The position numbers were made by a program, and so were the translations under genes. DNA of 64,000 nt. Source: Escherichia phage vB_EcoM-pEB20. Under the pieces are notes generated by a model. That model did no database searches. It was not told where the DNA came from and worked only from the letters and a program-made list of their open reading frames with translations. Location of the stretch: the sequence record OP114733. One strand, given 5' to 3'. Position 1 is the first letter of the stretch, and the number at the start of each line of letters is the position of its first letter. Positions 3,872 to 23,375 of the stretch are shown one piece after another.

Positions 3872-4104
3872 GTATAGCAATTTACATTAAATCAGAATCA
3901 TGTGATAGTTATCTGTACACATACGATAAAGATGTGTCAGAAGAAAAAATCAAAGACGACCTTAATATGGACCTTGATATGTTCTGTCCTATTGCAGATT
4001 ACAAACTTGCGGTCTCTAATAGTGAAAGTCCATCTAAAGAAACGCGCATTGAAGAATTTATGTCCGAATTAATGGCCAAATCATGGGACCGAGATGATGA
4101 GTAA
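3868..4104 (+). CDS. hypothetical acidic protein
   Basis: ORF 3853..4104; M6 start gives ATGA overlap with upstream stop. Confidence 0.5.
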   Translation: MSIAIYIKSESCDSYLYTYDKDVSEEKIKDDLNMDLDMFCPIADYKLAVSNSESPSKETRIEEFMSELMAKSWDRDDE

Positions 4105-4552
4105 GAAAAATAAAGTGAAAGAACTATCAGCCGGTATTATTTTCCTTACCGAAGATAAAGAATTATTCATGGGGCGTGTAACTGGTTCTCGTCCTAAAGG
4201 TTCTTTAGCTCATCGGTGGGATATTCCTAAAGGACGTGTCGAGCCCGGTGAATCTCCTATTGAAGCCGCTATTCGCGAATGCGAAGAAGAAACTGGGTTT
4301 ACACAATATGACCCTGCCTTCCTGAAAGACCTAGGTGAACATCATTACTCAGACAATAAGAATATTCATCTGTTCCTATATACCATCCCTGTAGAGCACG
4401 AGCAATTCAGAAACAGTGTTTGTAATTCCTATCATACATTCCCAGACGGACGACAGATTCCTGAATTTGATGCATTCGCTTTAATTAAACCTTCTCAATG
4501 GGAATATGTAATGGGCAAATCATTATATAGGGTGCTCACTACCCTCCTATAA
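4094..4552 (+). CDS. nudE: Nudix hydrolase (T4 e.1/NudE-like)
   Basis: Nudix box GRVEPGESPIEAAIRECEEETG; sits immediately upstream of lysozyme as in T4. Confidence 0.85.
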   Translation: MMSKKNKVKELSAGIIFLTEDKELFMGRVTGSRPKGSLAHRWDIPKGRVEPGESPIEAAIRECEEETGFTQYDPAFLKDLGEHHYSDNKNIHLFLYTIPVEHEQFRNSVCNSYHTFPDGRQIPEFDAFALIKPSQWEYVMGKSLYRVLTTLL

Positions 4553-4553
4553 G

Positions 4554-4562
4554 TAATAAATA
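4554..4562 (+). promoter_or_regulatory. candidate late promoter (TAATAAATA, one mismatch to T4 late TATAAATA)
   Basis: Sequence at 4554-4562 just upstream of hairpin and e start codon. Confidence 0.4.
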
Positions 4563-4584
4563 CCTCCTATAAACATGGGAGGTA
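4561..4584 (+). promoter_or_regulatory. RBS-sequestering hairpin of lysozyme gene
   Basis: TACCTCC 4561-4567 pairs with GGAGGTA 4578-4584, which contains the SD GGGAGG. Confidence 0.55.
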
Positions 4585-4586
4585 TT

Positions 4587-5075
4587 ATGAATATATTTGA
4601 AATGCTTCGTAATGACGAAGGTCTTAGACTGACTTTATACAAAGACACTGAAGGCTTTTGGACGATTGGCATCGGCCATTTAGTAACAAAGAACCCGTCT
4701 TTAGCCGTAGCTAAAGCTGAACTTGACAGAATGATCGGTCGTAAATGCAACGGTACAATTACCCTTGATGAGGCTGAAAAGCTATTTAATGAAGACGTTG
4801 ATAAAGCCGTCCGCGGAATCTTGGGTAATGCTAAACTTAAACCGGTATATGATTCTTTAGATGCGGTTCGTCGATGCGCATTGGTTAATATGGTCTTCCA
4901 AATGGGTGTATCAGGCGTCGCCGGTTTTACTAATTCTCTTCGTATGCTTCAACAGAAACGTTGGGATGAAGCGGCAGTAAATCTAGCCCAATCTAAATGG
5001 TATCGTCAGACACCTAATCGTGCGAAACGCGTAATCTCAACATTTAAAACAGGAACTTGGAAAGCGTATATATGA
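4587..5075 (+). CDS. e: endolysin, T4 lysozyme (gp e)
   Basis: [31 protein letters not shown] nearly identical to T4 lysozyme as recalled; 162 aa. Confidence 0.95.
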
Positions 5076-5353
5076 AAACATATAGTGAATTTTTATCAGA
5101 ATCTATTCTTAACGAAGCTACTGACACATTTGCAACTAAGCTAGGTGCAGCTTTGGTTGAAGCTGAAAGTCTATTAGCACGTATTTCTGAACTTGCTAGT
5201 AAGATAGATACTCGCAAATTTGAACGTACCAGCGATATCGCTAAGCTTGAAGCCTTGTTACGTATGTGCGATAAACCGGAAGAAATCGCTAAGAACGGCT
5301 CGCTAATGAAACAACGTCTTGAAAAATATATTTCAGGCGCTTCGGAAAAATAG
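5072..5353 (+). CDS. internal-protein-like with capsid targeting sequence [10 protein letters not shown]
   Basis: N-terminal CTS-like decapeptide typical of T4 IPI/IPII/IPIII; ATGA overlap with e. Confidence 0.6.
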
Positions 5354-14309: not shown

Positions 14310-15295
14310 TGAAAACAATTATGAAAGGCTACTTTGGTAGCCACCTTTATGGAACGTCTACCCCAGAATCTGACGTTGATTTTAAAGAAATTTATGTCCC
14401 TCATGCTCGTGATATCTTGACCGGTAACGTTAAAGAACATATGAGCAAGAACACGAATAACACATCTTCTAAGAACACAAAAGACGACGTGGACCATGAG
14501 TTATATAGTCTCAAATATTTCTTTAAACTAGCTGCGGATGGTGAAACTGTCGCATTAGATATGCTTCACACTCCACCAAGTCTAGTAGTTAAATCTGATT
14601 TGCCTGATGTATGGAAGTATATTCAAGATAACAGGTCTCGTTTCTATACCACTAACATGAAATCTTATTTAGGGTATGTCCGTAAGCAAGCTTCTAAATA
14701 TGGTGTCAAGGGTTCTCGACTGGCTGTTCTTCGTCAAGCCCTTAAACGTTCTAATGAATGGGGACAATACTTTGATAACGGTGCAGTAATTCGTTTATCA
14801 CATATGAAGAATGTTCTGCCTGTAGGTGAATTTGCTTCATGGGTTGAAATCGAAAACGAGAAAACAGGTAAGCAAACATTCTATAATCTGTTAGACCGTA
14901 AATTCCAAGACACGTTAACCAATAAAGAGTTCAATGCCATCCTGGTTAAACTGGAAGAGAACTATGGTGAACGTGCTCGTAAGGCAGAAGCTAACGAAGG
15001 TATTGACTGGAAAGCATTGAGTCATGCATGTCGTGGTGGACTTCAATTATTGGAAATTTACAAAACCGGCGACCTGGTTTACCCACTTCAGGATGCTCCA
15101 TTTATTCTCGATGTTAAGCTTGGTAAACATACGTTTAAAACTGTACAAGAATTCCTAGAAGATATCGTTGACCAAGTTGAACATGCGTCAGAACAAGCTG
15201 CCAAGAATGGTATGCAACAAAAAGTAGATATGAGTTTCTGGGATGATTTCCTTGAGCAGGTCTATCTCGAAAATCATAATTCTTACTATAAATAA
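14306..15295 (+). CDS. nucleotidyltransferase-fold protein (YFGSHLYGTSTPESDVDF)
   Basis: Classic GS...DxD minimal NTase motif near N-terminus. Confidence 0.6.
   Translation: MMKTIMKGYFGSHLYGTSTPESDVDFKEIYVPHARDILTGNVKEHMSKNTNNTSSKNTKDDVDHELYSLKYFFKLAADGETVALDMLHTPPSLVVKSDLPDVWKYIQDNRSRFYTTNMKSYLGYVRKQASKYGVKGSRLAVLRQALKRSNEWGQYFDNGAVIRLSHMKNVLPVGEFASWVEIENEKTGKQTFYNLLDRKFQDTLTNKEFNAILVKLEENYGERARKAEANEGIDWKALSHACRGGLQLLEIYKTGDLVYPLQDAPFILDVKLGKHTFKTVQEFLEDIVDQVEHASEQAAKNGMQQKVDMSFWDDFLEQVYLENHNSYYK
15287..15294 (+). promoter_or_regulatory. candidate late promoter TATAAATA
   Basis: Exact TATAAATA 33 nt upstream of ATG 15327. Confidence 0.4.
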
Positions 15296-15326
15296 ATAGA
15301 TAAATAACCATTAACTTGAGGTAAAT

Positions 15327-15608
15327 ATGAAAAAATTAGTAATTGGTTTATTCGCAGTAATGATGGCATTCTCTGTTGGTGCTACCACGGGTTCAGCCAG
15401 CGGTAGTGCAGGAACTGGTGGTAACCAGTCTTCTGGGCCTTCCAACGGTTCGGTAAATGCATCACATTCTCAGGGTATTGAGAATATCAAATCAAGCTAT
15501 ATTAATAGCACGGCCGGACAAGCAACTGAAGCATGGTCAAAGGGTCGAGTAGTTACACGCTCCGTATTCTGTGATATGCCTAATTATGTTGCTAAGTGCG
15601 ATAAGTAA
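15327..15608 (+). CDS. secreted Gly/Ser-rich small protein with signal peptide
   Basis: MKKLVIGLFAVMMAFSVGA signal peptide; GSASGSAGTGG low complexity. Confidence 0.55.
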   Translation: MKKLVIGLFAVMMAFSVGATTGSASGSAGTGGNQSSGPSNGSVNASHSQGIENIKSSYINSTAGQATEAWSKGRVVTRSVFCDMPNYVAKCDK

Positions 15609-22440: not shown

Positions 22441-22866
22441 ATGAATATTTCTGAAACTCGCGGTAAATGGTTCAAGATTGTTAAAGAAGATGAAGAACTA
22501 CAAGTCAAGTTTCCTGAATTAAAGAAAGGAACAATCATCAAGGTAATTGGTACTACGACCGAAGATGGTTATGGCGACCATGGCATTATTGAAGTGATGT
22601 TGAACACTGGTGAGAAACTTTGCATCTATGACCGTGATACTTCTCTTTGGTGCTTCTGGGAATCACATTCAATAGATGAACTCGAAGAAATTGATTCGGC
22701 TGATATTGCGGATGTGCTAGGTAGTAAACTTGGCGAATTCGAAGGTGAACGTATTTCTTATGCATTAGCTAAATTAGCCGGACAAGAAAATAACGACGGC
22801 TATGAAGGTAACCTGATGCAAGCAGCCGCAGAATACATTGAATATTTAGAAAGACGTTTAAGTTAA
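22441..22866 (+). CDS. hypothetical acidic protein
   Basis: M47 of ORF 22303. Confidence 0.5.
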   Translation: MNISETRGKWFKIVKEDEELQVKFPELKKGTIIKVIGTTTEDGYGDHGIIEVMLNTGEKLCIYDRDTSLWCFWESHSIDELEEIDSADIADVLGSKLGEFEGERISYALAKLAGQENNDGYEGNLMQAAAEYIEYLERRLS

Positions 22867-22872
22867 TAAATA
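22864..22872 (+). promoter_or_regulatory. candidate late promoter TAATAAATA upstream of gene 49
   Basis: Same motif as upstream of e. Confidence 0.4.
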
Positions 22873-22896
22873 CCCTTATCTATTTAAGGTAAGGGT
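22872..22896 (+). promoter_or_regulatory. RBS-sequestering hairpin of gene 49
   Basis: ACCCTTA 22872-22878 pairs with TAAGGGT 22890-22896, which contains the SD. Confidence 0.5.
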
Positions 22897-22901
22897 TTAT
22901 C

Positions 22902-23375
22902 ATGTTATTATCAGGCGCAAAATATAAAGAAGAAAAACAAAAATTTTATGATGCACAGAACGGTAAGTGTCCTATTTGCCACCGTGAATTAGACCCTGAT
23001 GTTCAAGGTAACCATCTTGACCACGACCACGAATTAAACGGGCCAAAAGCAGGTAGAGTTCGTGGGTTACTCTGTTCTCTGTGCAACGCAGCAGAAGGTC
23101 AAATGAAGCATAAGTTCAACCGTTCCGGTCTTAAAGGTCGTGATGTCAACTACCTAGAATGGCTTGAAGCTCTTCTTGCTTATTTGAAACAAGATTATTC
23201 TGATAATAATATCCATCCTAATTTTGTTCCAGACAAAACTAAAGAGTTCTCAAGACTAGGTAAAGAGGAAATGATGGCCGAGATGCTTCAAAGAGGATTT
23301 GAATATAATGAATCTGATACTAAAACACAATTAATAGCTTCATTCAAAAAGCAGCTTAGAAAGAGTTTAAAATGA
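22902..23375 (+). CDS. 49: endonuclease VII (Holliday junction resolvase)
   Basis: MLLSGAKYKEEKQKFYDAQNGKCPICHRELDPDVQGNHLDHDHE... resembles T4 gp49 as recalled; 157 aa. Confidence 0.9.
   Translation: MLLSGAKYKEEKQKFYDAQNGKCPICHRELDPDVQGNHLDHDHELNGPKAGRVRGLLCSLCNAAEGQMKHKFNRSGLKGRDVNYLEWLEALLAYLKQDYSDNNIHPNFVPDKTKEFSRLGKEEMMAEMLQRGFEYNESDTKTQLIASFKKQLRKSLK

Follow-up and report, generated by a model that had tools for sequence, protein, structure and literature searches.

Translational control of the lysozyme gene e of bacteriophage T4 was reportedly described in 1986 by McPheeters, Christensen, Young, Stormo and Gold (Nucleic Acids Res 14:5813). Early T4 transcripts extend into e and form an inhibitory structure that brings lysozyme synthesis down about 100-fold, and the formation of this structure, the block of initiation and late starts inside the structure are established (Uzan & Miller 2010, PMC3014915). 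For close T4-type relatives, the part of this review that deals with e leaders depicts leaders of a similar kind, in each of which the DNA for the 5' strand contains a late promoter (PMC3014915, its Fig. 5). The RB69 leader is presumably among those drawn, because RB69 is not named in the lists given there of phages without the structure, without e or identical to T4. Genes 49 and soc and the I-TevI gene of T4 follow the same principle, in that their late promoters are positioned to leave the inhibitory 5' strand out of late transcripts only (PMC3014915); these are other genes, and their leaders are not homologous to that of e.

The T4 late promoter box lies at -13 to -6 (Nolan et al. 2006, PMC1524935). 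Among 50 listed T4 late promoters, 32 have the perfect box TATAAATA and nine have A instead of T at -13 (Geiduschek & Kassavetis, PMC2988020). Conservation of the T at -13 is poor in RB69 and other T4-like phages, where A or T commonly fills this position (PMC1524935). A(-13) is the commonest accepted late-promoter variant (PMC2988020, PMC1524935).

The stretch of DNA analyzed here (64,000 nucleotides of Escherichia phage vB_EcoM-pEB20, record OP114733; hereafter the window) is ~98% identical to Mosigvirus (RB69-like) T-even coliphages. We consider it very likely that its lysozyme locus represents T4 gene e translational control in its Mosigvirus (RB69-type) form. As the mechanism has been established in T4 since 1986 and was pointed out as conserved in relatives in 2010, the locus is an ordinary, well-behaved example of something already known and opens no new biological question. 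The product of the gene is 83% identical to T4 e over 161 amino acids (E = 1e-103; Pfam PF00959), and its ATG (4587-4589) starts a 162-codon ORF with the N-terminus MNIFEMLR. A nudE gene lies immediately upstream of e here, as it does in T4 and RB69, and its stop codon TAA (4550-4552) falls within the upstream copy of a direct repeat. By its sequence, the gene is the T4 e orthologue, in the conserved nudE-e context that goes with T4 gene e-type control. The leader and its surroundings (4541-4589) read ACCCTCCTATAAGTAATAAATACCTCCTATAAACATGGGAGGTATTATG, and the features discussed below are listed in Table 1.

Table 1 Features of the e locus and of leaders with a comparable layout in the window
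Feature	Position	Strand	Basis
nudE (Nudix hydrolase, T4 e.1 orthologue; early-region gene)	4094..4552	+	ORF; Pfam NUDIX PF00293; relatives annotated nudix hydrolase
Upstream copy of direct repeat CCTCCTATAA	4543..4552	+	nudE last codons (Leu-Leu) and stop
Near-box TATAAGTA, one mismatch (G at -8)	4548..4555	+	sequence
Candidate late promoter box AATAAATA, A(-13) variant of gp55-dependent TATAAATA	4555..4562	+	sequence, conservation
Hairpin 5' arm AAUACCUCCUAU, including anti-SD CCUCC 4563-4567	4559..4570	+	folding
Predicted late +1	4568	+	box at -13 to -6 (PMC1524935) and 5'-end scan
Decayed proximal box TATAAACA, counterpart of the second perfect TATAAATA of T4	4568..4575	+	comparison with T4
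Hairpin loop AAAC	4571..4574	+	folding
Hairpin 3' arm AUGGGAGGUAUU, containing Shine-Dalgarno GGAGG 4578-4582	4575..4586	+	folding
Gene e (endolysin / T4 lysozyme orthologue, 162 aa)	4587..5075	+	ORF, T4 e identity, PF00959
Late boxes besides that of e	11961, 12184, 15287-15306, 22865, 54774	+	[T/A/G]ATAAATA scan of the window
Starts behind those boxes: rI.-1-like; rI-like (AATAAATA box); soc-like	11993; 12218; 54813		
Early-promoter hairpin leaders, starts	5412 (denV), 8970 (regB-like), 12622, 49952, 56633, 62666		
Promoters of those starts, respectively	5355, 8913, 12566, 49897, 56577, 62611		

RNA folding gives a single dominant fold of the e leader, with 12 contiguous pairs between 4559-4570 and 4575-4586. 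Its free energy is -16.0 kcal/mol as against -5.7 +/- 2.0 kcal/mol for dinucleotide shuffles (z = -5.1); 0 of 200 shuffles fold as well, and within a 121-nt context the minimum-free-energy fold again contains this stem. The original prediction, made from the sequence alone, had proposed that TACCTCC (4561-4567) pairs with GGAGGTA (4578-4584) around the Shine-Dalgarno sequence (SD) of e. This pairing is present and is larger than the 7 bp listed; the coordinates of both segments are correct, as are those of TAATAAATA (4554-4562) and of the ATG (4587-4589), and the stable predicted hairpin on which the proposal depended is found at -16.0 kcal/mol. The whole GGAGG is buried in the stem, whose last base directly precedes the AUG, so that the start codon abuts the stem. 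As a background control, we calculated the ensemble free-energy cost of keeping positions -14 to +2 single-stranded for the 90 SD-bearing + strand starts in the window. Exposure of the SD and AUG of e costs 17.2 kcal/mol compared to a median of 5.5 kcal/mol, and ranks 5th among the 90 starts. Long transcripts are thus predicted to carry a stable leader hairpin that pairs the SD and reaches the AUG. When 4300-4800 was scanned against Rfam with an E cutoff of 10, only three chance-level matches came up (E of at least 5.8, with scores well short of the gathering thresholds); they all lie outside the leader, at 4340-4480 on the - strand, and no curated Rfam family matches the e leader element in that segment.

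The late-promoter-like motif that the original prediction had placed at the 5' arm is also present, not as a perfect TATAAATA but as the A(-13) variant AATAAATA (4555-4562), an imperfect box that matches at 7 of 8 positions. The last four bases of this box are the first four bases of the hairpin 5' arm, and the predicted +1 lies just past the anti-SD. At the sequence level, the locus has a gp55-type box that would place the transcript start inside or after the 5' arm. In order to see how occlusion depends on the start, opening energies of 4573-4589 were computed at varied transcript 5' ends. They are 16-19 kcal/mol for a 5' end at 4559 or further upstream, 14.1 kcal/mol at 4561, 11.5 kcal/mol at 4563, 6.4 kcal/mol at 4565 and 5.0 kcal/mol for 5' ends at 4566-4573. 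The calculation predicts a sharp switch, with the predicted start safely on the open side, and any start from 4566 to 4573 yields the same computed outcome. The comparison of early and late 5' ends suggested in the original prediction agrees with it in silico: opening of the SD is predicted to fall from 17 to 5 kcal/mol, and the best box predicts a start downstream of 4561 and not upstream of it.

In the late RNA the SD region is predicted to remain paired with the early coding sequence to the extent of ~5 kcal/mol, similar to T4 (4.7 kcal/mol). Within 4569-4620 of this RNA, the SD region GAGGUAUU can pair weakly with e codons 10-12 (AAUGCUUC). This pairing competes with a coding-region hairpin (4606-4621) and is not significant compared to shuffles (z -1.9).

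The likeness to T4 extends from the orthologous e (83% amino acid identity) and its nudE neighbour to the leader itself, in which T4 TATAAATACCTTCTATAAATACTTAGGAGGTATTATG and window AATAAATACCTCCTATAAACATGGGAGGTATTATG are homologous base for base. In both, the 3' arm holds GGAGG and GUAUU up to the AUG, the anti-SD directly follows ATAAATA, and the predicted late start lies just past the anti-SD. By the same calculation, the opening energy falls from 15.4 to 4.7 kcal/mol in T4 (distal late promoter) and from 17.2 to 5.0 kcal/mol here. The claim that the locus matches the known control of T4 gene e is thus well supported by orthology, by leader homology, by a predicted +1 at ~4568 past the anti-SD and by a 17 to 5 kcal/mol drop like that of T4, because homology, geometry and thermodynamics all agree. 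T4 differs in having two perfect TATAAATA boxes, whereas here AATAAATA stands at the distal position and the decayed TATAAACA at the proximal one; in having a stem of 11 bp with an 8-nt loop and CCUUC with a G-U pair, compared to 12 bp, a 4-nt loop and CCUCC here; and in a distance from box to AUG that is 2 nt longer than in the window. The GenBank and RefSeq records of T4 carry no promoter features at the e locus. RB69 is closer still: from the nudE stop to the AUG it is identical to the window but for one base, G where the window has A4575 (called a loop base), so that the difference is essentially a single nucleotide, and both CCTCCTATAA copies are present.

The stop codon of e overlaps the start of the next gene (ATGA, 5072-5075), an internal-head-protein-like ORF (5072-5353) for which Pfam gave no match. 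In RB69 the two genes overlap likewise; in T4, e and ipIII are separated by 87 nt. The overlap suggests translational coupling, as well as sharing of the e late promoter with the downstream ORF. The A(-13) box, the loss of the proximal promoter, the tighter 12-bp stem with its 4-nt loop and the ATGA overlap are the only differences from T4, all at the level of the lineage.

A protein-guided scan of viral contigs identified 54 loci, 23 of them T-even-type (L002-L024), with proteins 60-99% identical to that of the window. The window, T4 and 15 leaders from among L002-L024 make up 17 distinct leaders. In all 17, [T/A/G]ATAAATA abuts the anti-SD and a hairpin of -7.5 to -16.6 kcal/mol includes the SD, with opening energies of 10-19 kcal/mol for early and 1.4-8 kcal/mol for late RNA. 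Loops and upper-stem pairs vary by lineage, the stem register is shifted in the CC31-like group, and one clean compensatory change was found (L022, with SD GGGGG paired with CCCC). From L025 onward, where the lysozyme homologues are more distant, the arrangement is absent. By blastn, the 141-nt leader region matched 780 phage records; an exact-pattern scan of viral contigs for ATAAATACCTCCTATAAAC hit mostly unrelated sites, whose reverse complement serves as the SD of a different gene.

RNAalifold applied to a MAFFT alignment of 16 leaders yielded 5 pairs with 0 double-sided (compensatory) changes. When the 12-bp stem of the window was mapped on the alignment, its covariation score was 0.143 (0.125 in shuffles, of which 24 of 500 scored as high). 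This is not significant, as expected with a 3' arm that consists of the SD and scarcely varies. We therefore claim no support from covariation and rely on folding of each sequence, since the SD arm is near-invariant and MAFFT misaligns lineages with a shifted stem register. The elements themselves, their geometry and predicted energetics, the homology to T4 and the conservation of the layout are direct observations at this locus.

In the proposed switch, host RNA polymerase would start early at upstream early promoters and read through the packed + strand genes and nudE into e. On such long RNAs the 12-bp hairpin would lock GGAGG and abut the AUG, so that 30S subunits could not bind and no premature lysozyme would be made. 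Late, polymerase modified by gp55, gp33 and gp45 would recognize AATAAATA and start at ~4568, and the resulting RNA, having no anti-SD CCUCC, would not form the hairpin and would leave the SD exposed for translation of lysozyme. We infer for this phage that the box is active as a late promoter, that this is the exact start site and that early transcripts read through. The four ORFs that precede e on the + strand overlap or abut one another, and a terminator scan listed no terminator-like site between nudE and e. A T4-type early promoter pattern (GTTTAC and TAnnnT separated by 15-19 nt) is matched at 25 sites on the + strand and at 3 on the - strand; the GTTTAC-type matches upstream of e lie at 146, 1034 and, nearest, 2329. 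The packing of the genes, the lack of a terminator and the promoter matches are consistent with early transcripts entering e as they do in T4.

The activity of the box as a late promoter is the point at issue in the best of the alternatives, in which the hairpin represses e on long RNAs while AATAAATA is inactive, late lysozyme being made from the same RNAs through coupling to the nudE stop or through endonucleolytic removal of the 5' arm. We regard this as unlikely. The box is imperfect, and the RB69 site identical to it is absent from the 31 HMM-predicted late promoters of RB69 (Nolan et al. 2006, supplementary list), a list that does include the perfect gene 49 box of RB69; this absence is a mild caution on the promoter call. 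As for removal of the 5' arm, some mapped late 5' ends could be processing products (Geiduschek & Kassavetis, PMC2988020). As for coupling, the nudE stop lies 6 nt ahead of the stem, and when 4535-4564 is held single-stranded, as by a ribosome at that stop, the computed opening energy falls from 17.2 to 8.2 kcal/mol. A terminating nudE ribosome may thus partly open the hairpin and make repression on early RNA leaky, but T4, with the same spacing from stop to stem, still represses early translation ~100-fold (PMC3014915).

Conservation of the box also argues against its being inactive. In 16 aligned T-even e leaders ATAAATAC is invariant at this exact position, preceded by T, A or G, while the flanks and loops have diverged. 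A(-13) is an accepted variant, and wherever such a box occurs in the window it is in a promoter position. The six independent + strand [T/A/G]ATAAATA sites all lie 28-40 nt upstream of a start codon, a placement shared by 7.6% of window positions as background, and the genes behind them are e, rI.-1, rI, a secreted protein, gene 49 and soc. The perfect TATAAATA occurs 3 times on the + strand and 0 times on the - strand, compared to ~6 expected per strand from base composition. There is no other late box in the 4.5 kb of the window upstream of e. AATAAATA can be flagged as a probable working late-promoter form in this phage group. The secreted or lipoprotein-like ORF at 15327 is preceded by a triple cluster of overlapping boxes, TATAAATAAATAGATAAATA.

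Another explanation is that the stem-loop serves mainly the nudE message, as an element of mRNA stability, processing or termination, for example by shielding the GGAG of the SD from the RegB endoribonuclease, with sequestration of the SD as a side effect. The hairpin does lie at the 3' end of nudE, GGAG is the RegB target motif, and a RegB homologue is encoded (annotated 'endoribonuclease' in APCEc01 and regB in RB69). The stem, nevertheless, pairs the SD with its complement and stops at the AUG, a geometry suited to occlusion, and its T4 homologue was shown to block initiation (PMC3014915). A role in the nudE message would also leave the abutting, conserved late box unexplained, and we find it very improbable. 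The hairpin was likewise rejected as an intrinsic terminator, since no U-tract follows the stem and the terminator scan does not list it.

That an SD complement and a TATA-like string came together by chance in an AT-rich intergenic region has almost no probability: such strings are frequent in AT-rich T-even intergenic DNA, three one-mismatch boxes lie within 30 nt at e and the direct repeat alone is compatible with chance, but a hairpin with z = -5.1 and 0 of 200 shuffles as good, a start ranking 5th of 90 and, above all, a layout that is kept in 17 distinct leaders and is homologous to a proven element effectively refute it.

Two further near-boxes flank the AATAAATA box. The upstream one, TATAAGTA, would if used give a +1 at ~4561 and an RNA that keeps a 10-bp hairpin, with a predicted occlusion of 14.1 kcal/mol at that 5' end; its sole other copy in the window (12389) sits inside an ORF, and it is probably inactive. 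The proximal one, TATAAACA, has 4 copies in the window, 2 of them inside ORFs, and would if used start RNA at ~4581, within the SD. It has decayed further, to TATAAACG, in RB69, APCEc01 and phiE142. The second perfect late box, a feature of T4, is not found here and is absent altogether from most other lineages among the leaders compared; it belongs to T4 and its near relatives only and is not a defining part of the mechanism. One could speculate that, with the proximal promoter decayed, the timing of the lysis enzyme in RB69-type phages rests on a single weakened A(-13) promoter, while TATAAGTA would give a non-productive RNA that tunes the amount of lysozyme. We hold this to be a long shot; if true, it would amount, together with the ATGA coupling of e to the internal-head-protein gene, to a lineage-specific rewiring of the classical switch.

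The 10-nt direct repeat noticed in the original prediction does occur twice, with an exact second copy of CCTCCTATAA at 4563-4572. It is a weak signal: the window has 8 exact repeats of this kind (10 nt or longer, offset by 10-30) compared to 2.1 +/- 1.5 in Markov simulations. The upstream copy is exact in RB69, matches at 9 of 10 positions in APCEc01 and at 8 of 10 in phiE142, and varies in its first two bases. A role of this copy as a back-up anti-SD was rejected: mutation of its CCUCC does not lower the computed occlusion (18.0 compared to 17.2 kcal/mol), and when the proximal copy is mutated the upstream one adds only ~1.7 kcal/mol (7.0 compared to 5.3). By these calculations the repeat is probably incidental, with no predicted structural role.

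Similar layouts are found elsewhere in the window. At gene 49 (endonuclease VII; CDS 22902-23375), a AATAAATA box (22865-22872) abuts an anti-SD, ACCCUUAUC, that pairs with the SD region UAAGGGU. The opening energy is 15.7 kcal/mol in read-through RNA compared to 3.3 kcal/mol from the predicted late start at 22878, and RB69 has a perfect TATAAATA where the window has AATAAATA. Gene 49 is a known T4 case of control by a late promoter and an occluded SD (PMC3014915). Occlusion at the soc-like start is predicted to be moderate only (10.4 to 5.4 kcal/mol).

A family of leaders carries a T4-type early promoter inside a hairpin that occludes the SD. In these leaders an anti-SD (TTCTCCTC or TTCCTCC) comes directly after the -35 GTTTAC, the loop contains the -10, and GAGGAGAA or GGAGG is carried on the 3' arm. 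Their opening energy is 12-20 kcal/mol in read-through RNA compared to 3-5 kcal/mol in RNA from the internal promoter, and the drop is at least 6 kcal/mol in 6 of 17 early-promoter leaders. According to these predicted energies, such leaders would apply the logic of gene e to sigma-70 early promoters. No description of an early promoter inside an SD-occluding hairpin was found in the literature searched; T4 reviews may cover it.

The leader comparison also bears on annotation. The RB69 RefSeq entry for e (NC_004928 65200-65673; L067 7201-7674) begins at an in-frame ATG five codons downstream, gives a product of 157 aa, and bypasses the GGAGG-N4-ATG start conserved with T4 (MNIFEML...). The start codon in that entry is probably mis-annotated, and 4587 is confirmed as the true start of e in the window.
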